Positions 1 through 58,146 of a stretch of 64,000 nt of DNA are shown here, piece by piece; positions within the stretch are counted from its first letter, which is position 1, and each line of letters starts with the position of its first letter. The notes beneath the pieces were generated by a model. That model made no database searches, was not told the origin of the DNA, and saw only the letters and a program-made list of their open reading frames with translations. Where the stretch lies: contig NC_090349.1 of the NCBI RefSeq assembly GCF_035084215.1, positions 46,562,001 to 46,626,000 on the forward strand, given 5' to 3'. Origin of the DNA: Heptranchias perlo. Taxonomy: Eukaryota. A program made the position numbers and the translations under genes.

Positions 1-58
1 GGACAAATGTAAGGAATCTTACAACACCGGGTTATAGTCCAACAGTTTTATTTGAAAA

Positions 59-95
59 TCACAAGCTTTCGGAGGCATTCTCCTTCGTCAGGTGA
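59..95 (-). ncRNA. Minimal type I hammerhead ribozyme motif (sense to SBNO1)
   Basis: rc: ucac CUGACGA a ggag aaugc cucc GAAA gc UU guga. Confidence 0.7.
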
Positions 96-140
96 GTGTT
101 CTCTGACTATATATGCGGTACCTTCCATGGAATCCCACAC

Positions 141-177
141 TCACCTGACGAAGGAGAAAGCCTCCGAAAGCTTGTGA
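141..177 (+). ncRNA. Minimal type I hammerhead ribozyme motif
   Basis: ucac CUGACGA a ggag aaagc cucc GAAA gc UU guga: stem I, core, stem II and palindromic AAGCUU stem III. Confidence 0.7.
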
Positions 178-339
178 TTTTCAAATAAAACTGTTGGACT
201 ATAACCTGGTGTTGTAAGAAACCCAATCCACACTGATAGCTCCCTCACCATCATCCAAAGCCTTCTAAAATCTTACTCCTTCACCCCACCTTTGCTCACC
301 TCCTAACTCTTCAACCAATTTCTGCTCAGGGACGTGGGA

Positions 340-32915: not shown

Positions 32916-32934
32916 AGAACATAGAAAAATTACA

Positions 32935-33124
32935 TCAGGTTATAGTCCAACTGTTTTATTTGAAAATCACAAGCTTTCGGAGGCTTTCTCCTTCGTCACT
33001 TCACCTGACGAAGGAGAAAGCCTCCGAAAGCTTGTGATTTTCAAATAAAACAGTTGGACTATAACCTGGTGTTGTAAGATTCCTTACATTTGTCAACCCC
33101 AGTCCATCACCGGCATCTCCACAT
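32935..33124. mobile_element. Palindromic Penelope-like element (family A)
   Basis: Inverted arms about 32933-32998 and 33006-33071. TSD catagaaaaattaca at 32920-32934 and 33125-33139. Inserted at a CR1 tail. Confidence 0.8.
33001..33037 (+). ncRNA. Minimal type I hammerhead ribozyme motif
   Basis: ucac CUGACGA a ggag aaagc cucc GAAA gc UU guga. Confidence 0.7.
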
Positions 33125-35592: not shown

Positions 35593-35727
35593 CCACATCG
35601 TTCACCTGAGGAAGGAGGTAGCCTCCGAAAGCTTGTGAATTTAAAATAAAATTGCTGGACTATAACTTGGTGTTGTAAAATTGTTTACAATTGTCAACCC
35701 CAGTCCATCACCAGCATCTCCACATCA
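35593..35727 (+). mobile_element. Single-arm Penelope-like element (family A)
   Basis: TSD tgccaaaagat at 35582-35592 and 35728-35738. Hammerhead core at 35601-35639; shared terminus CCAGTCCATCACC..CATCTCCACATCA. Confidence 0.8.
35601..35639 (+). ncRNA. Minimal type I hammerhead ribozyme motif
   Basis: uucac CUGAGGA a ggag guagc cucc GAAA gc UU gugaa. Confidence 0.7.
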
Positions 35728-43386: not shown

Positions 43387-45257
43387 CTGAAGAGACAGGA
43401 AAACCATTTGAAGTATTAGACTACATTCTCTGTGAAAAGGTGTTAGGACTAAATCTGTCCCCCCTTCCTAGGTACACAATAAATTAAATACAAGAATGCA
43501 TTCCGCTAACATAATTACATAGTGTGCTATTCAGTTCTAGTATTCTATATACTATGTAAATATTCCAGCATATTAAACGGGACAGGGCAATGTACAGGAC
43601 CAGAAATGAGCACTGCGATTCATGTGGCCATTCTCAACATCTAATACAGTAGAACTGGTTTATTTGCACGTTCATCTACCATGTGACTAATGCTACAAAT
43701 GAAGTGACTGTGACCATCCCGACCACCATTACTGCTGTTAGATCCATTTTTTGAGCAGCTCAGTTTACCCGAGCGCCCCGGGGAGTGATGGCATTTGTTG
43801 CACTTAGAGCTGTAAGTGCCGGTTTAAAATCTTACGCTGGATGCACTGCTAAAAAAGAATTGGCCTCTATCTGCATATTGCATGCCGACTGTAATTACAC
43901 AGCGTGCACGTGCACAATAAAAACAGTGGAAAAGCAAGAGTACCCAGTAACTGCCTGTTTTCACAACTGCAAGGTCAATTCCAAAGCAGATAACCAAAGT
44001 TCCTCTATATTTATATATCTGAATACATATAGAATTCATTAAAAAAATCACTCATTTTGTACTACACTCGAAATACTGTTAAGTAGTGCTCATAATTACA
44101 ACTTATCACCTTTAATATGGTAACGATTTCAAGCCCCAAAGTAGAAACAAACTGAAGAGGAGTTAGGAGAGATGATTAAAAGCCTGGTGGACCAGATTTG
44201 AAGGTGGGAGAGACACAACAGGACACATGCATTTGTGAACAAAATTTGATTGTACACCTAAGACAGCCAAACACTTGGCCACTGAGGGTGGAGCAGAGGA
44301 GATACACAAATGATTACAGTTGGGTAAGGTGGGGCCAAGAATCCTAAATTCAGTGCGTTGGGACTTGGTGGGAGGCATGAGAGCGCCAATGGAGCTCAGC
44401 GAGCACTGGGGTGATAGGCAAGCAGTATGTACCTGAGGGATAGGATGCAAGGAGCAGGGTTCTGAATGAGTTGGAGGTTATGTAGAGTGCAGCTGGGGAG
44501 GCCAGCAAAGAACATGCCAGAGAAGTCGACCCTGGAACCAACAAAGGCATTAATGAGGGTTTCAGCAGTGGTGGGGTTGAGGTTAAGGGTGAAGGAGCGC
44601 AATATTGCAGATGTGGAAGTAGCAACTCTTGATGATGGATTGGATATGGTGTTTGAAGCTCGGGTTCAAACAGGACATTGAGACTGTGCACCTTCAGTTC
44701 AGCCTAAGCAAACAACCAGTAAGGAGGACACAATCCGGCTAGGGTGGGGAATTTTTAAAAACAGAAGCCCAACAGGATAGCTGGGTCTTGTCGAATGTTA
44801 AGTTGCAAATTCTGGCTCATCCTTTACTCCATGTCAGAGAAGCAATCAGATGGCTTAATGGTGATCGTGGACTCATGCTGGACAGTAGCCTGAGCTGGCC
44901 TTGACACACTGTGAAACTGGTCCCATGCCTGTGGATAATGTTACCAAGGGGCAGCATCTAAAGAAGGAATAGGAGGCGGCCAACAATTTTTTTTTAATTC
45001 ATTCTTGAGATATGGATATCGCTGGCAAGGCCAGCAATTATTGCCCAACCCCAGTTGCCCTTGGGAAGGTGGTGATGAACCTTCTTGAACTGCTGCAGTC
45101 TGTATGGTGAAAGTGATCCCACAGTCCTGTAAGGTAGGGAGTTTCAGGATCTTGACCCATCGGCAATATATGTCCAAGTCAGGATGGTATGTGACTTGGA
45201 GGAGAACTTAGAGGTGATGGTGTTCCTATATGTCTGCTGCCTTTGTCCTTCTAGATG

Positions 45258-45572
45258 ATGTGGAGATGCCTGTGATGGACTGGGGTGGACAAATGTAAGG
45301 AATCTTACAACACCAGGTTATAGTCCAACAGTTTTATTTTAAAATCACAAGCTTTCGGAGATTATCCCCTTCATCAGGTGAGTAGTGAAGGAGAGGTTCT
45401 CAAATCGCATATCTTATATTAGGCTGGGACACCATCACACCAATCAAAGGTGTCATTGGTGTTCAGACAGGTTAGCCACGGAAAACAGTAGGTCCCAGTA
45501 TGCTGAATACACAATGTGTCACATTTTAAAATAAGATTGTTGGACTATAACCTGGTGTTGTAAGATTCCTTA
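45258..45572 (-). mobile_element. Penelope-like element (family A) with a partial inverted arm, nested in a LINE
   Basis: TSD cttctagatg at 45248-45257 and 45573-45582. Hammerhead core on - at 45345-45381. Confidence 0.8.
45345..45381 (-). ncRNA. Minimal type I hammerhead ribozyme motif (sense to SBNO1)
   Basis: rc: ucac CUGAUGA a gggga uaa ucucc GAAA gc UU guga. Confidence 0.7.
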
Positions 45573-46104
45573 CTTCTAGATGGTAGAAGTCATGTTTGTT
45601 TGGGAGGTGCTGTCGAAGAAGCCTTGTCGAGTTGTTATGGAACTTTGGCATTTCCGAGGTGGCAGCTATTGAAGGAGATTTGGTGGCTATATTAGGGCAG
45701 GCAAAGTAGAACCAAGTGACAGTTCTGCCATGGAGGAGAGACTATGGAGAACGATGCAATGGTTGGGCTGCAGCAAATGCAGAGTTCACGAGAGGCAAGG
45801 TGGGTTCATGTGTTACAGATGCAGTCCCAAGAACGTCAGTGGTGATGTTGATCCGGGTAATCTGTGATACTGACATGGAGGAAACGAAAATGGGATTTTA
45901 ACATGAAATTGTGGCAGAGTGCAGAGCTGGGTGGCAGCAACGCATTTGAGGACTGCAGAAAGGAAAGTGAGGGTTAGGTATTGGGTAGTAGTTGCAGAAG
46001 ATGGAGGGCGTTTTTTTTTAAAAAGAGAGAGGCTGACAAACCAAGACATGCTTCAATTCAGATAATCACAAACTATGTGTAAGCAAGGGCAAACTTTTCC
46101 ATCT

Positions 46105-46325
46105 ACTATAAGTGGATAGGATCTGGAATGCACTGCCTGAGAGGATGACGGAGACAGATTTGATCATGGCCTTCAAAAGGAACTGGATAAGTACTTGAAA
46201 GGAAAAAATTTGTAGGGCTACGGGGATTGGGCAGGGAGTGGGACCAGCTGGATTGCTCTTGCATAGAGCTGGTGCGGACTCGATGGGCCAAATGGCCGCC
46301 TTCCATGCTTTAACCTTTCTATGAT
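46105..46325 (+). mobile_element. CR1 3' tail
   Basis: Matches 3600-3810. Confidence 0.8.
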
Positions 46326-47343
46326 AAACTAAATTGGTTTAATAGGGCGGCTTGGAAAAATGAGGTGCTACTGAAATTTCCAACAGTACCGATCAAAATC
46401 TCAATATTCTTAGTCCGTTCATTTTGTAGACTCAGATTTTGTAGATGAATTAGGTGTACGCAACCCTAACAAAAACACTCCACGATGCTCTTTTCACTGT
46501 GTTTTTGCATTGTACAAAACAGAACATTAGTATGTGCAGTTACCTGGCAAATAAAGAACAATTGCATGCTTTAAGTAGACTAGCAGGAAATCTAGATGCT
46601 GCTTTAATGGTGGAAGGGAAGGTAATTCTGTTCAGTGATTCCAGTGGCGTGATCTCCTAATAAAATTATCTGGGGACTATGACAATTACAGGCCTTAGGG
46701 CTCCAAATTAACACAAGCTTACTACAAGGAGACCAGCAACAATCTGAAGTAATTAGTTTGTGAATAATGTGGTACCACCCTTGTACTGATTGAGGTCTGA
46801 GCAGCTCCATTCCCTCTCCAAATAAGGACTGGGGGAATACTACATGACACAAGCTATCCTTTAATTTGAGATAAACCATTCCTGCTCAAGACTTGATTGA
46901 TCTACAGCATTCACCAAAGACCAGGATGGAAGAGAGAGAAAACACATCAATAAGGGGACTTTTTTTAAAAAAATGTTTTATCCGCTTATTTTGAAGTCTT
47001 TCTAGACTCTCATTTCCACTGCTGACATGATGAATGGGCAAATGGCCTGCTGCAGACCTCCACCAATACCTCCTTTGGCCAGACCCAGGAGGATCAAGGT
47101 ACCAAGCCAGGCAGTATAGTCTAATTTTCCAGCCCAATACAGGAATAATCTGAAACCTCCACTTGGCAGAGTGATGAAGCCTATGCTCTCCTTACTGAAA
47201 GCCATCTCAACCCACAGGTGAGCAAAGAAAAGTACAGAACAATGACAAAGAAGCTGTAATGTGGAGATGCCGGTGATGGACTGGGGTTGACAATTGTAAA
47301 CAATTTTACAACACCAAGTTATAGTCCAACGATTTTATTTGAA

Positions 47344-47384
47344 ATTTACAAGCTTTCGGAGGCTTCCTCCTTCCTCAGGTAAAT
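47344..47384 (-). ncRNA. Minimal type I hammerhead ribozyme motif (sense to SBNO1)
   Basis: rc: auuuac CUGAGGA a ggag gaagc cucc GAAA gc UU guaaau. Confidence 0.7.
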
Positions 47385-47401
47385 GTCAGGGAGTTCCTGA
47401 C

Positions 47402-47442
47402 ATTTACCTGAGGAAGGAGGAAGCCTCCGAAAGCTTGTAAAT
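47402..47442 (+). ncRNA. Minimal type I hammerhead ribozyme motif
   Basis: auuuac CUGAGGA a ggag gaagc cucc GAAA gc UU guaaau. Confidence 0.7.
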
Positions 47443-47759
47443 TTCAAATAAAATCGTTGGACTATAACTTGGTGTTGTAAAATTGTTTACAAAAGAAGCT
47501 GTAGGAGAGGAAACAAAAAAAAAAACTGAAGAGACAGATAGAGTAATAACCAGAGGCTAGAAATTAAACTGTGCCATATTTCTGCACTGAAGCTTAATGT
47601 GTTTGTACCAAACTATTCTGTCTACCAGTTTAGTTCTAACGAGTTATCTCCTAAAACAGTGGTCAAGAGAGCTTACTGCAACACATTCCACTTTTGTACG
47701 ATAATACTGCATACAACAATTTCCAGGCTTTGGCAATTGAAGAAACACTAAGCTTGTCA

Positions 47760-48862
47760 TAGAATTATAGAACGGTTACAGCACAGAAGGCGGCCATTCA
47801 GCCCGTGCCGGCTCTTTGTGAGAGCAATCCAGTTAGTCTCATTCCCCCGTAGCCCTGCAAATTTATTCCCTTCAAGTGTTTATCCAATTCCTTTTTGAAA
47901 GCCATGATCGAATCATCTTCCACATAATAACTATTTGCTGCGTAAAAACATTTTTCCTCATGTCACCTTTGGTTCTTTGCAAATCACCTTAAATCTGTGT
48001 CCTCTGGCTCGCGACCCTTCCACCAATGGGAACAGTTTCTCTTTATTTATTTTATCTAAACCCTTCATGATTGTGAATACTTCTATCAAATCTCCTCTGC
48101 TCTAAGGAGAAAAACCCTGGTTCTCCAGTCTATCCACTTAACTGAAGTCCCTCATCCCTAGAGCCATTCTCGTAAATCTTTTCTGCACCCTTTCTAAGGC
48201 CTTCACATCCTTCCTAAATTGCGATGCCCAGTATTGGACACAATACACAAGCTGTGGCTGAACCAGTGTTTTATAAAGGTTCAACCTAACTTCCTTGCTT
48301 TTGTACTCTATGCCTCTATTTAGCTTTTTTAACCACTTTCACAACCTGTCCTCCCACTTTCAAAGATTTGTGCACATAAACCCCCAGGTCCCTCTGTTCC
48401 TGCACCCACTTTAGAGTTGTACTATTTAGCTTATATTGTCTCTCCTCATTCTTCTTGCCAAAATGTATCACTTCGCACTTCTGTGCATTAAATTTCATCT
48501 GCCCATAGTCTGTCTATGTCCTCTTGAAATCTACTGCTATCCTCCTCACTGTTTACTACACTTCCAAGTTTTGTGTCATCTGCAAAGTTTTAAATTGTGC
48601 CCTGTACACCCAAGTTCAAGTCATTAATATATATCAAAAAAGCAGTGGTCCTAGTACCGATCCCTGGGGAACACCATTGAATACCTTCCTCCAGTCCGAA
48701 AAACAACCGTTTACCACTACTCTCTGTTTCCTGTCACTTAGTCAATTTCATATCCATACTGCTGCTGCCCCTTTTATTCCATGTGCTTCAATCTTGCTGA
48801 CAAGCCTATAATGTGGCACTTTATCAAACGCCTTTTCAATGTCCATATACACAACATCAACC
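47760..48862 (-). mobile_element. CR1 RT fragment
   Basis: KFNAQKCEVIHFGKKN...EQRDLGVYVHKSLK; same subfamily as 2360-3810. Confidence 0.9.
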
Positions 48863-49224
48863 GTCAAATGGTTTACTGTCTTTAACCATGCTAAAAATTG
48901 TTATGCTTTGATCAAAATACAGTTTATTCTGACTGTGTAGCTTTTGAAGACAATTGCTGCCTGACTAACAGGTAACTAACTCTTCACTGCCACTTTGAAG
49001 GGGGAGTGGGCGACACTCTATCATTAAACTTCTGTCACAAGAAAATGTCAAAAATCAGGAGGCCAGTCGTGACCACATTCAGAAAAGTCGTGCTAAAGTC
49101 AATTAATATGCAATAAAAGGCAAATATAAAATCTACTTTATTTTTTATTTACAGGTCGAAGCATATTATTTGCTCATGGTAAGGGTAACCTTTTTTTAAA
49201 AATTATGAAAAGCTAGGAACAGTG

Positions 49225-49920
49225 ATGGTCCAAAGAGATTTAGCGGTCCATGTACACGAAAATGTACATGATCAGGTACAAAACAATCAAAAGGGCTAAT
49301 GGACTGTCAGCCTTTATATCTAGACAGCTAGAATATAAAGAGGTGGAAGTTCTGCAACAGCTATACAAAGCCCTAGTTAGACACCATTTAGAGTATTGTG
49401 CAAAGTTCTGGACACTGCACATTAGAAAGGATACATTGGCCTTGAAAAGAGTGCAGCGCAGATCCACCAGAATGTTACCAGGGCTCCATGGGTTGAATTA
49501 TGAGGAGATTTTACATAACCTAGGTTTGTATTCTGTGGAATGTAGAAGGTTAAGGGGTGATATGATTGAGGTTTTTAGGATTTTGAAAGGAAATGATAGG
49601 GTAGATAGAGAGACATTTTTTCCGCTGGTGGGGGAGTCTAGGACATAGGGACATAGTCTTAAAGTCAGAGGCAGACAATCGGGAGAGAAGTTAGGAAACA
49701 CTTCACGCAAAGGGTGGTAGAAGTGTGGAACACTCTCCCACAAAAAGCAGTAGATCTTGGCTCAATTAATAATTTTAAATCTGAGATGGATAGAATTTTG
49801 TTAGTCAAGGGTATTAAGGGATATGGAGCCCTTAAATGGTGTTAGGATTCAGATCAGCCATAATTTCATTGAATGGCGGAAAAGGCTCGAGGGGCTAAAT
49901 GGCTTCATGTTCCTATGTAA
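49225..49920 (+). mobile_element. CR1 3' fragment
   Basis: LYKALVRHHLEYCAKFW...RRLRGDMIEVFRILKG. Confidence 0.88.
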
Positions 49921-51705
49921 CAGCATACTGCAATGGTCGTACAAAGTGTGCACAAATACATGAAAACTTATACGGAACACACTGTATTTCAGATTCATTT
50001 TTATGATCAAATGCGCCAGAAAACTGGAACAAAATCATATGAATTGTCAAATTTATAGAAGTAAAAATCGTACCAGTCACAGTTTGGTATAAAAATCACA
50101 GGACGTCGCAGCCTTACCCATCATATTATCAAAGTCAACGTTACTTAGCCAGAGACAAATAGTGTTAGCAACATCCCACTAATTGTGACTGATCCAACAA
50201 ACTAGTAACGTTTTTCTGTCATTATATACCTCCTGCACACTGTTCTCTCAAACAGGACTCACCCCAATACACACATTATTGTTTTAGATTTTGTCAAGTA
50301 TATCAAATGATTTACACTACAGAGAAGCAACTTCTGTTAGCTACTGATCCTGCCTTTCAGTGATACTGCAGTTTAAAGTCTGGAGCTGCCTTGTCCCACA
50401 TGGAAAAACATAGGCAGCTCTAGAAATGAGGTCTTCAAAATGTTATTTTTGTTAACATGCCTCCTACAAGTTTTGCCACACATATTCCAATCCTAGCCCC
50501 TGAAATAAGTTTGAAATGATTTCTACCTGGAATCAGTTGGTGGGATTTTGACTCACCACTGAGAGAAATACCTGAAATTTCAAGTCGGTATCCATGCTTA
50601 ACCCAATGACTTTTAAAGCAAAATTTACATAAAAAAGGGCAAACTAAACCAAAGACTCTGTACATTGTAAAACATCTTCCATCCACTTTTGAAATCTATC
50701 AGCATCGCATGAATATATCAAAATATCATTTATTTAAAAATATAATGAAAGCCAGGCCTGTTGAGTGTTAACCAACTCATTTTAATTTAAAAGTACAAGC
50801 TTCTTGATGCAGTTGACATCATACATGATGTGTGCAACAACTTTCATTATGTTACATATCGGTTAACAACAACTTGCGTTTATATAGCTCCTTTAACATA
50901 GTAAAGGATCCCATGGCACTTCACACAAGTGTAACCAGGCAAAAATTGACACTGAGCCAAAGGAGACATTAAGACAGGTGACCAAATGCTTGGTCAAAGA
51001 GATAGGTTTTAAGCAACATCTTAAAAGGGGGAAGAGGGAGATGGAGATGGAATTCCAGATATTATGGACGGCTTATGGCACAATCGCCAATGGTGGGGCG
51101 AAGGAAGTCAGGGATGCATAAGAGGCAAGAGTTGGGGGAACGTAGAGCTCGCGGTGGGTTGTAGGGCTAGAGGTAACAGTTAAAATGCAGAAATTATTAG
51201 CAAAAAACAGGAACTGACTCAATGAGTTCTAAATAATGGAAACTGCAACTATGGCTAAAAATACACAAAGCTACAATAAGTTTCCTTTGAAGCAAATTGT
51301 AGATGGACCAATCACATACACTTCAAGACTAAAGTCAGAGCACTATCATAATACGACGAAACAATACAAATAGCAGTACAACCCAGGAAACATGTATGAT
51401 CTGTAAGAAGTTTATGGCAGGTAATCTGGCCCAAATTTGCACCAGAACATGTTTTTGCATATTATGCATTTACAAGAATTCCACAATTAAAATATGGGCC
51501 AAAGATGCATACAATATTGATGCTTCAATCCTCAGCTTCCTCTTCAATTCAATGAAGAGCATGAACTATTAGAAAAGTTACAATGTAGAATGGCAACTGA
51601 TTGCATAAATTCACATTCAAGATAAAGAAAGAAAAATACTATCTAAATGTTAACTAAAATGAATAACAATGCAAATACCAAATAAGATTAGGAAGCCATC
51701 TTTAC

Positions 51706-55377: not shown

Positions 55378-55480
55378 AGCTCCGCTGAGGCGAGGACACA
55401 GTGCGCGCAGGATCCGCTCGGCCGCCCGCCCGTCGCTCTCTAGCCAGTCGCCGCCATGTCAGCCGCCATCTCCCATCACG
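55378..55480 (-). other. SBNO1: SBNO1 exon 1 (non-coding 5' UTR; TSS approximate)
   Basis: GC-rich segment in the CpG island ending at a strong donor GCT|GTAAGTG (rc of cacttac 55371-55377). It would splice to the exon that begins exactly with the ATG at 51837. Confidence 0.7.
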
Positions 55481-56175
55481 TGACCCCCGGCCGAGCGCTT
55501 CCCCCAACGGTCCGCTCGGGCTCCGGGCTGCTGACGGTTTCAGCCAGACGCGGTGCCACCGGAATCAGACAAACGCGTAAAAAAGTTAAAAGATGTGGCA
55601 TAATTTTGTTGAATTTACGTTTTCTAAATCTCCCCAAATCACCGGCGGCAATTCCCGGTCACGTGACCGTCCCCGATTGCCAAGGCAGCGAGTCGCCCAC
55701 TGCGGCCAATCCTCGCCCGCCTTGACGTCAGCGTGGCCAATAGAAAACGAGCGCGTAATTCAAAAATCACCGGGGCCGTTGGGATCAGCCTAACTTGCTG
55801 GCAAGGGGAGTGGGCGGGGACACCCGTGATTGACGGCTCGGCCGGCCAACGGGCATTGAATATCCGGAGCGGCGGCGGGCGCTGCCAGCTAGCTATGTCC
55901 AATCAGAGGCGGCCTGAGGCGGGCCTTTTTGTGCGGATAACAATTTTTTTATTAAGGGAAGGTATTAAGTTAGGGTGAGGGACAGAGCGGCCATTTAAAT
56001 TGATGAAGGTTTTGGGCGCTCAGACTATAAGGGGTTGAAAAATTGTGTGTTCTTCAAACCGGAGTTGAATTTGTAGCTTTTTATTTGCTATTCCTTTGGT
56101 AAATTATTTGCAGTAGAAATGGGTAAAAAGAATATTTGTTATTTTATGTAATTTCTGTTGCCGTTATATGTGACC

Positions 56176-56192: not shown

Positions 56193-56407
56193 GACGGGCG
56201 GCGCTGCAGCTTGTTCGCTTTTTAAAAAAGTGTTTGTTGTTTCGAGTAAATACGGTAATTTTCAAAATGGCGGAGCCGTTGCGCTAGTAGGCCCCGGACC
56301 AGCTTCCCGGCAGGAAAGCGAGCCGCCCCTCCCCTCCCCGCCCCGCCCGGTGTTACTGCGCTCCTTCACAATGCGGTGAGCTTTCTCAACATGTTTTAAT
56401 CCTTCAG

Positions 56408-56499
56408 GGAAAACCAAGGCCGCGGCTCCAAGGCCGGAGAAAAAAAGCGGCGGAGGCAAGGCCGCGGCGGCGAAGGAGAACCAGCGGGCCATGAACGAG
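56408..56499 (+). CDS. KMT5A: KMT5A (SETD8/PR-Set7) N-terminal coding exon; start codon and upstream exon unresolved
   Basis: ttcag|GG AAA...GAG|gtacgt, 92 nt. Reads (G)KTKAAAPRPEKKSGGGKAAAAKENQRAMNE, in frame with the next exon. Confidence 0.65.
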
Positions 56500-58146
56500 G
56501 TACGTGTGGCGGGGGGCGGGGGGCGGGGGGGGGGGGGGGGAAGGGAGGCCCGGCACCCGAGGCCCGTCACCGAACCCCCGGGCTTCTCGCTTCATTTAAA
56601 GCCCTGGGTGTTGAACGCACCGTTTCCTCGCTCCCCTGAATGAGGAGAGGCCGATAAACAATAAATAAATAAATAAATTTAACTTTCTATTTAATGATAC
56701 TTATTTTAAAAAGCATTTAATGTGAACCGAGGGTGAGCGATTTACAAGCTGCTGTGTCTCAGGTGATTGACATTATTTGACTATTATTGCTGCTTTTAAA
56801 CTTTTTTAAAAAGGGTGCAGTTATTAATCATAATTAAAAACAAAAGAATCATAAAACCAGCGTTAAAAGCATAAATATAATTGGTCATCTTCAAGAAGAG
56901 TTGAGTTTGTAAAATTAACTTTTAAAATAATGAAGTTTTACTTCTGATATTTTGCCCCTTTTTGAAGAAGATTTCTGGGGTTGGCATTTATCGCCCGTCT
57001 GCTGATTGCCCTGCGAATGGTGGCGGTGGGGACCACCACCTCGACCTGCTACAAGCGCCCGCCTGTCACTGCGGCCGAGCTCCCTCGGCCCACAGCCAGG
57101 CTGCTGCTTTGCTGCATGGGGTGTGGGCTCGGAGTGGGATGAGCTGCCCCGTCAGCTTCTTCCCTTCCTTCTCCAGCAGGAGCGTCTCGCCATCACAATG
57201 CAGGACACCCCATGACAGCTCTCTCTTCCCGACCTCTGCCCAGTCCCTTAGTTCAGTTCATGCCCCCAGGCAAGTGATTTTGTTTTATACTGAAATTACA
57301 TCGATTTAAGCATCAAGGAGTGCTGTTGATTTTTGTCTGATTGCACTTCTGTGGGGTTTCTTTTTCTGTTAAAGGTGACGTAGTTGTTAAAATGACAGGC
57401 AGATACAAGTAAGAAAGTTATTTTTGAGTTGTAAAGCATGTTAGTTGGGAGGAGAATCCGGTATTCAATTACTTACAAATGCTCATATCACGGAAGTTTC
57501 CTCACCACCTCAAAGTAGCTTAATAACTGAGTAGTTTTTGGTTATTTCATATTTCTTTCATGGAAAAATATGGGAATGTGTACAGTGTGAGTTTTAAATG
57601 CAGAATTACTGGGGCAGATTAGCATTTAAACTCTTGGAATACAAATTCATTACTTCTGGGCTAAAATACTAGTTAAAGCAAAAAACCCAGCTCTTGGATT
57701 CTCCACTTCCCATTGATAGTTCATGGCACAGTACTTTCTGCTTCATTCTTTGGGCTGCAAAAATTATAAATGCTCATTAAAATTCACTTTTTTGGTGTTT
57801 TAAAATGGGATGTCCCACCTAGCCATGTGTGGTAACTCCTCCATACCCTAGTAACCAAGTCTGATCTTTGCTTGTTTACAAACAACGATGCCTATCGGCT
57901 GTGACTTTCATGTTCCAACCAATATCTAATTGATCAAGATGGTCATTTAGTCGGCCTTAGTGGGCATTTAGCTCATTGTTATTTGGGAGACCTTGCATGC
58001 AAATTATCTGTCACGTTTGCCCACATGAAAGCATTTAAAAGTAATTTGTTGGCTGTAAAGCACTTTGGGACGACCTGAGGACATGAAAGGCGCTATGACT
58101 GCAGACTCTTTCCCTTTCTTCCTAACCAATGTATGTGTTTCAACAG

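Follow-up and report, generated by a model that had tools for sequence, protein, structure and literature searches.

A perfect hammerhead-bearing fold-back in an SBNO1 intron of the shark Heptranchias perlo is probably an inert stub of a Penelope-like element insertion

An intron of SBNO1 in the shark Heptranchias perlo carries a short insert in which a hammerhead ribozyme motif is present on each strand of an exact palindrome. What kind of element produces such a structure, and does it do anything for its host? The first-pass annotation had read it as an ambisense, viroid- or retrozyme-like layout that would protect the host pre-mRNA, and had offered as a fallback that it might be a by-product of Penelope integration. 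We analysed the insert within a window of 64 kb, the whole stretch of DNA to which all positions refer (Table 1), and compared it with related copies across the genome.

The two arms are perfect reverse complements of 97 nt with GAGTT in between, and the 12-bp target-site duplication (TSD), AAAGAAGCTGTA, stands at both ends and does not extend to 13, all as first described. Two details changed. Base 47492 is common to arm 2 and the right TSD copy, which corrects the first reading, and the 5-nt spacer, although present between the arms, is not foreign, as the whole of 47390-47492 matches the terminal repeat (pLTR) of the parent at 103 of 103 positions. The insert totals 233 bp and consists of two head-to-head pLTR copies of a Penelope-like element (PLE), with neither a TATA box nor an ORF. 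We used a u scale counted on the minus strand, with 47395 as u1 and 47259 as u137. On this scale the hammerhead occupies u12-u52, with the predicted cut after u46, and the 35-nt tail (u103-u137) is found on one arm only. Parent copies L230, L247 and L184 contain both the tail arm (132 nt) and 47390-47492 (103 nt) letter for letter; L231 has no exact match to the insert arms. The parent leader variant is present at 40 places in the genome. The insert thus has the features of an endonuclease-positive (EN+) PLE insertion, namely an inverted 5'-truncated copy, a one-sided tail within 30-40 bp and a TSD.

Table 1. Positions of the insert, its parts, the host intron and the other family insertions in the window.
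Feature	Position	Strand	Remarks and basis
Left TSD copy, 12 bp	47247..47258	+	sequence repeat
PLE tail of 35 nt, confined to this arm; in full-length parents it stops just 5' of the ATG of the ORF	47259..47293	-	tail type in PMC8557442 and PMC11167929
Arm 1, pLTR copy in host-gene sense (minus strand)	47294..47390	-	arm plus tail (132 nt) equal to parent copies L230, L247, L184
Hammerhead 1, minimal type I: CUGAGGA, extra A, helix II of 5 bp, GAAA-GC-UU; predicted cut 47350/47349	47344..47384	-	motif features as in PMC4209133
Junction, parent leader letters GGAGTT, part of the tail-less arm; compared with the commonest junction, one G is shared or extra	47390..47395	+	
Arm 2, inverted pLTR copy without tail	47396..47492	+	47390-47492 equal to parent, 103/103
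Hammerhead 2, minimal, identical to the first; predicted cut 47436/47437	47402..47442	+	
Right TSD copy	47492..47503	+	sequence repeat
SBNO1 intron bearing the insert; bounded by the first coding exon (51837-51706) and by a probable alternative exon (about 43386-43288)	43387..51705	-	
Family insertion in the same SBNO1 intron; intact sense hammerhead, inverted arm starts downstream of the cut (natural unshielded control)	45258..45573	-	
Single-arm family insertion, 11-bp TSD, antisense to SBNO1	35594..35727	+	
Fold-back family insertion; minus arm without the first C of the hammerhead core	32932..33124	+	
Fold-back family insertion across the window start; hammerhead on both strands, 12-bp TSD	1..217	-	

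Elsewhere in the genome, the pLTR unit sits 3' of the end of a GIY-YIG-like ORF. A genome search with this parent protein gave 65,320 first-look candidates, and 124 were scored. The full-length parent ORF has 918 aa from stop to stop (902 aa from the Met), matches RVT_1 (E 3.8e-10) and harbours the motifs DKG, YIDD, CX4CxxC and YLI-C-C-YIG. The GIY-YIG-like motif, YLIRCRKGCPRAWYIG at aa 808, has the two internal Cys that characterise EN+ PLEs; the Pfam GIY-YIG model had no match in the parent and the nuclease call rests on motifs. C-terminal fragments of the parent gave no match in Pfam, and a C-terminal fragment gave none in the PDB. In L057 and L061, direct pLTR copies are present on both sides of the ORF, which is therefore flanked by pLTRs with a hammerhead. 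CRGNLCKTC at aa 769 agrees with the linker motif of the Neptune clade as defined in PMC8557442, where the motif is common to Neptune and Nematis. Judging by its motifs, the parent is an endonuclease-positive PLE of Neptune type, the clade being assigned from the linker motif and the vertebrate host. The 918-aa ORF (902 aa from the Met) is free of stops at four loci (L057:3735-6491; G000 C10, C14, C18, C27), and the family may therefore still be active. Contigs of organism C (runs X8 and X5 examined) cover the element and organism B gave none at 85% likeness, suggesting that the family is patchy among relatives; neither organism gave usable cover of the flanks of the insert.

The host gene, SBNO1, lies on the minus strand, and the Heptranchias perlo protein P0001 matches it at 100% identity. 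Upstream of the insert, the splice 55378-51837 was shown by contigs of three putative RNA runs (one sample, contigs only), and these contigs run on beyond the stretch examined. The likely alternative exon at 43386-43288 on the minus strand has AG/GT ends, is matched by bird and bony-fish homologues and is missing from isoform P0001. The first exon of SBNO1 (55378-55693) lies in a CpG-rich stretch; a second covered segment, from 56336 (56336-56500), possibly belongs to a neighbouring gene with a shared promoter. Pfam gave no match for the two host-exon ORFs. Another short repeat is present as an inverted pair (46157-46325 and 47764-47914), with one member on either side of the insertion; spaced 1.4-1.7 kb apart, the two could pair into a second intronic duplex. 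The pLTR unit itself occurs in five insertions of the window, four of them with an inverted arm. One of these shares the intron with the insert and carries, 1.9 kb away, a sense hammerhead (45383-45343) that is unshielded, its inverted arm beginning at u51, past the cut site.

The annotated hammerhead was recovered on each strand, with the core and helix I pairs 6/6 starting at +47402 and -47384. It has the CUGANGA and GAAA cores, helices I and II and a palindromic stub replacing helix III, and belongs with the minimal type I hammerheads. Rfam gave no match at gathering score within the 64-kb window, and at E<=10 it gave 27 weak matches with none from the hammerhead families. Rfam matches to miRNA precursors were below the gathering score and were rejected, as they reflect the hairpin. 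In the folding model, helix III of the monomer would require a 2-nt loop, which is forbidden. Among dimers, the double-hammerhead fold has -18.3 kcal/mol, and the best alternative is more stable at -27.1. A single minimal motif gave no cleavage in the experiments of PMC4209133. Both ribozymes of the insert are likely to be inert passengers, because each depends on a partner on the same strand and, in a relative, on the protein of the element.

The same model predicts the 97-bp rod that the first-pass annotation had proposed as a silencer of the ribozyme (MFE of -172 kcal/mol for the minus-strand insert vs. -29.5 for one arm). The rod would bury the motif further, yet little activity is expected beforehand. 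The antisense arm does precede the sense arm on both strands, because the geometry is head-to-head, as in 24 of 24 sampled fold-backs. Dicer or ADAR may plausibly process the predicted hairpin; in transgenic Drosophila, siRNAs that match the inverted repeats of Penelope are described (PMC3681739). The viroid- or retrozyme-like layout is not borne out. The insert has one hammerhead per strand and no same-strand tandem, whereas a non-LTR retrozyme consists of two or more units in a row on one strand, all of them with a hammerhead. A viroid-like ambisense RNA would be a circular replicon with ribozymes in both polarities; the insert as observed is a TSD-flanked chromosomal insertion.

To what extent the insert is typical of its family was estimated from 1.31 Mb of sequence, taken from large contigs as 131 stretches of 10 kb that lie at round-number coordinates. 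This sample yielded 66 matches in 33 stretches; the 34 tail-bearing rows, minus one duplicate (L156), left 33 insertions, and six lone tail-less matches were left unclassified. A head-to-head arm was present in 24 of the 33, making the fold-back the family norm. A TSD of 11-18 nt was found in 27 (one further call was spurious and five had none), and an intact hammerhead on both strands in five. Extrapolated to the genome, these figures give approximately 60,000 fold-backs (38,000-89,000) and 12,000 double-hammerhead copies (4,000-29,000). Exact 11-nt anchors gave at least 22,459 head-to-head pairs genome-wide in five distance bins (0-30 nt, 1,621; 31-60, 1,634; 91-120, 11,673; 121-150, 6,421; 151-180, 1,110), a count that covers these five bins and includes duplicated segments. 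The anchor distance of the insert is 129, and its short size class comprises about 18,000 exact-anchor pairs.

The first-pass annotation had also called the insertion very young. Support for this is only loose: the absence of differences from the parent at 235 sites limits divergence to at most about 1.3% (95%), and perfect arms are common, being present in five of the 14 measurable short fold-backs of the sample (17 tried, 3 not measurable). No empty-site joint was present among the 15 listed of 118 DNA-run joints.

Whether the fold-back is a stub or has arms of up to 2.2 kb, its outer ends lie in two ranges, u101-107 and u135-139. In eight of ten long loci (partly picked for having pairs; arms of 0.27-2.2 kb) the arms end at u101-107 and u135-137. 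The inner ends show a pile-up directly upstream of the hammerhead, followed by a tenfold drop. This pile-up is near the expected RNA start, because TATAAA starts at u-28 or u-20 in the subfamilies checked (u-20 in the subfamily of the insert). For this subfamily the textbook start would be near u10, and the arms of the insert begin upstream of it, at u0 and u6; the insert may simply derive from a longer RNA by ordinary truncation, with the join at the GGA-GT-TCC mini-palindrome. The 21 near-twins carry the extra leader on the tail-less arm in eight cases (insert included) and on the tail arm in six, six being symmetric or unclear and one having no tail; neither arm is therefore regularly nested in the other.

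Several other origins of the end points were considered and rejected. In vivo cleavage came under suspicion because 7 of 33 tail arms start in a second cluster, which lies 7-20 nt downstream of the predicted cut. It was rejected, as the 31-60 bin shows no excess over the 0-30 bin and the 50 junctions listed per bin, inspected by eye, hit AT-rich palindromes or cross the cut site. In bins 0-60 there is no peak of inner ends at about 42, the distance expected from cut RNA. Stalling of the reverse transcriptase at the ribozyme fold was ruled out because the peak lies beyond the fold. Transposition as a unit was dismissed for three identical C3 junctions (L226-L228), which share their flanks and resemble a segmental duplication. 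Some junctions showed further peculiarities. Those of L235, L236 and L237, three cases only, end at an A about 30 nt past TATAAA, followed by CC/GG, and this extra CC/GG might come from a reverse transcriptase running off a capped 5' end. The junctions of L234, L238, L244, L248 and L249 have short templated duplications of nearby sequence that resemble synthesis-dependent end joining. In G000:C1:45197913 and C1:10761465 the arms differ in subfamily letters (core CTGAGGA vs. TGACGA), hinting at two template RNAs in one event or at later mutation.

The palindrome centre is spanned by no listed read or contig, and the contigs of DNA runs X1 and X3 that cross both insert junctions (one sample, possibly the assembled individual) reach just 23 letters into the insert, less than the 31-letter bridging rule. 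They do, however, enter it at both ends in the right head-to-head orientation; the TSD is clean, the tail one-sided and the junction letters those of the parent, and the structure has more than 22,000 relatives, with a TSD of its own in 27 of 33 sampled insertions. We give an assembly artefact next to no probability. That the antisense arm has been retained because it silences a harmful ribozyme in the host pre-mRNA would fit the predicted dominance of the rod, the intronic position of the insert and the mild depletion of retrozymes in Xenopus introns mentioned in bioRxiv 10.64898/2026.07.22.740005. It fits poorly with a monomer that cannot close helix III and a double-hammerhead fold weaker than the alternative dimer, with the unshielded sense hammerhead in an intron for which spliced SBNO1 contigs exist, and with the many fold-backs from which the hammerhead is wholly absent. 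Among the 24 hammerhead-bearing insertions of the sample (introns and strands pooled), 11 were unshielded, 12 shielded and one partly shielded; for three of the unshielded ones, an arm might lie outside the range covered. The host protection first proposed is unsupported by these data, and we consider it very unlikely.

Copying of the whole fold-back, as a self-propagating ambisense unit of retrozyme, viroid or MITE type, would account for 21 near-identical fold-backs, eight of them with the same junction letters, and for the strong over-representation of the size class. Those eight junctions, however, occur both ways round relative to the tail (three vs. four, and one without tail), which argues against copying as a unit. 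Moreover, most junctions differ between copies, there is no same-strand hammerhead pair for releasing a monomer or a circle, and lengths are continuous up to 2.2-kb arms, so that this origin is extremely improbable. A more serious competitor is inversion by self-priming, in which folding back at a small palindrome lets an antisense RNA or a single cDNA act as its own template, leaving the same dead-end element. The arms are identical, junctions favour local palindromes (GGA-GT-TCC, TCA-CC-TGA, AAGCTT, TTTAAA), and PMC3846280 reads junction palindromes as self-priming on an antisense template. A single tail-first cDNA would always put the loop letters on the tail arm, but they lie on the tail-less arm in eight of the 14 asymmetric near-twins, the insert among them, and in L156 the tail arm measures 44 nt and its inverted partner about 970 nt. 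Variable trimming on an antisense template could yield non-nested arms too; on the other hand, microhomology joining of two cDNAs equally favours palindromes. Overall, self-priming is unlikely, though it deserves some weight.

The fallback of the first-pass annotation, a by-product of Penelope integration, is the reading that the data support: the insert is identical to the parent repeat, has a one-sided tail and a TSD, lacks a TATA box and an ORF, and belongs to a structure of family-wide frequency. Probably, the two head-to-head pLTR copies were made in one integration event, in which each nicked strand primed a short cDNA and the ends were joined. A lizard PLE protein cuts and extends both target strands in vitro; it starts at two internal sites separated by one tail length, and its main substrate is uncut RNA (PMC11167929). 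This evidence concerns a Poseidon-clade lizard element. By analogy, the GIY-YIG nuclease would nick both strands about 12 bp apart, and the two 3' ends would prime reverse transcription from internal RNA sites that lie about 35 nt from each other, so that one end has the tail and the other does not. Both cDNAs would stop near the 5' end of the uncut element RNA, and short self-complementary letters, here GGA-GT-TCC, would help to join them. The resulting copy would be dead on arrival.

Such an event resembles LINE-1 twin priming, in which both target strands prime cDNA and an inversion arises within the TSD, joined through microhomology. The inverted part of a LINE-1 copy derives from another stretch of the RNA, whereas in the shark insert both cDNAs would cover the same stretch, which gives a palindrome. 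The units of EN+ PLEs in PMC3846280 and PMC8557442 share with the insert the head-to-head inverted pLTR, the 35-nt tail at one end, the short TSD, the small junction palindrome, the pLTR hammerhead and a parent with a C-terminal GIY-YIG; they differ in that the shark insert is the pLTR alone, without ORF or TATA box, and that the shark genome has about 18,000 exact-anchor pairs of this size class. As in the minimal hammerheads of metazoan PLEs (PMC4209133), the motif is of type I, with an extra base between 9 and 10.1, G10.1-C11.1, a palindromic 15.2-16.2 and no monomeric helix III; unlike them, the putative shark ribozyme has a helix II of 5 bp and a helix I of 6 bp. Poseidon of Anolis carolinensis (PMC11167929) likewise has two end points about one tail length apart and a ribozyme that is mostly uncut in integrated copies. 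Its ORF starts inside the hammerhead, whereas in the shark parent the ATG follows the tail, and it is without the extra CX2-5CxxC motif of the shark parent. Non-LTR retrozymes, as presented in bioRxiv 10.64898/2026.07.22.740005, are also non-coding, with a type I hammerhead and a PLE pLTR origin, but they are same-strand tandems with at least two hammerheads, whereas the shark insert is one inverted pair with no route to a circle.

Published work already describes pLTR inversions that have the tail and a TSD, siRNA derived from inverted repeats of Penelope, and opposite-strand hammerheads, which PMC4209133 records 100-700 bp apart. According to PMC8557442, how the tandem and inverted structures of PLEs originate is undefined. 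Our literature search, with supplements and subscription papers outside its scope, found neither a description of this shark family nor two-strand priming as a source of PLE palindromes.

The insert is thus probably a real, ordinary and inert stub of a known kind of retrotransposon insertion. As a single copy it is of little importance, but the population to which it belongs, with tens of thousands of junctions and intact 902-aa ORFs, is useful for testing two-strand priming, the RNA start and the silence of the ribozyme in vivo. Annotators should beware of pLTR fold-back stubs, which mimic miRNA hairpins and ambisense ribozyme RNAs. As a tentative extension, which we rate as possible but doubtful, the approximately 18,000 short fold-backs could be the genome-wide footprint of PLE integration (a dimeric particle, priming of both target strands at two internal RNA sites, an uncut 5' leader as the sole part copied, twice, and a final joining of the ends), with the intronic copies giving self-silencing hairpin RNA. 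If this is true, each intronic copy would produce a hairpin RNA against the ribozyme and the RT-start region of the element, and the family would seed its own silencing by small RNAs or ADAR.
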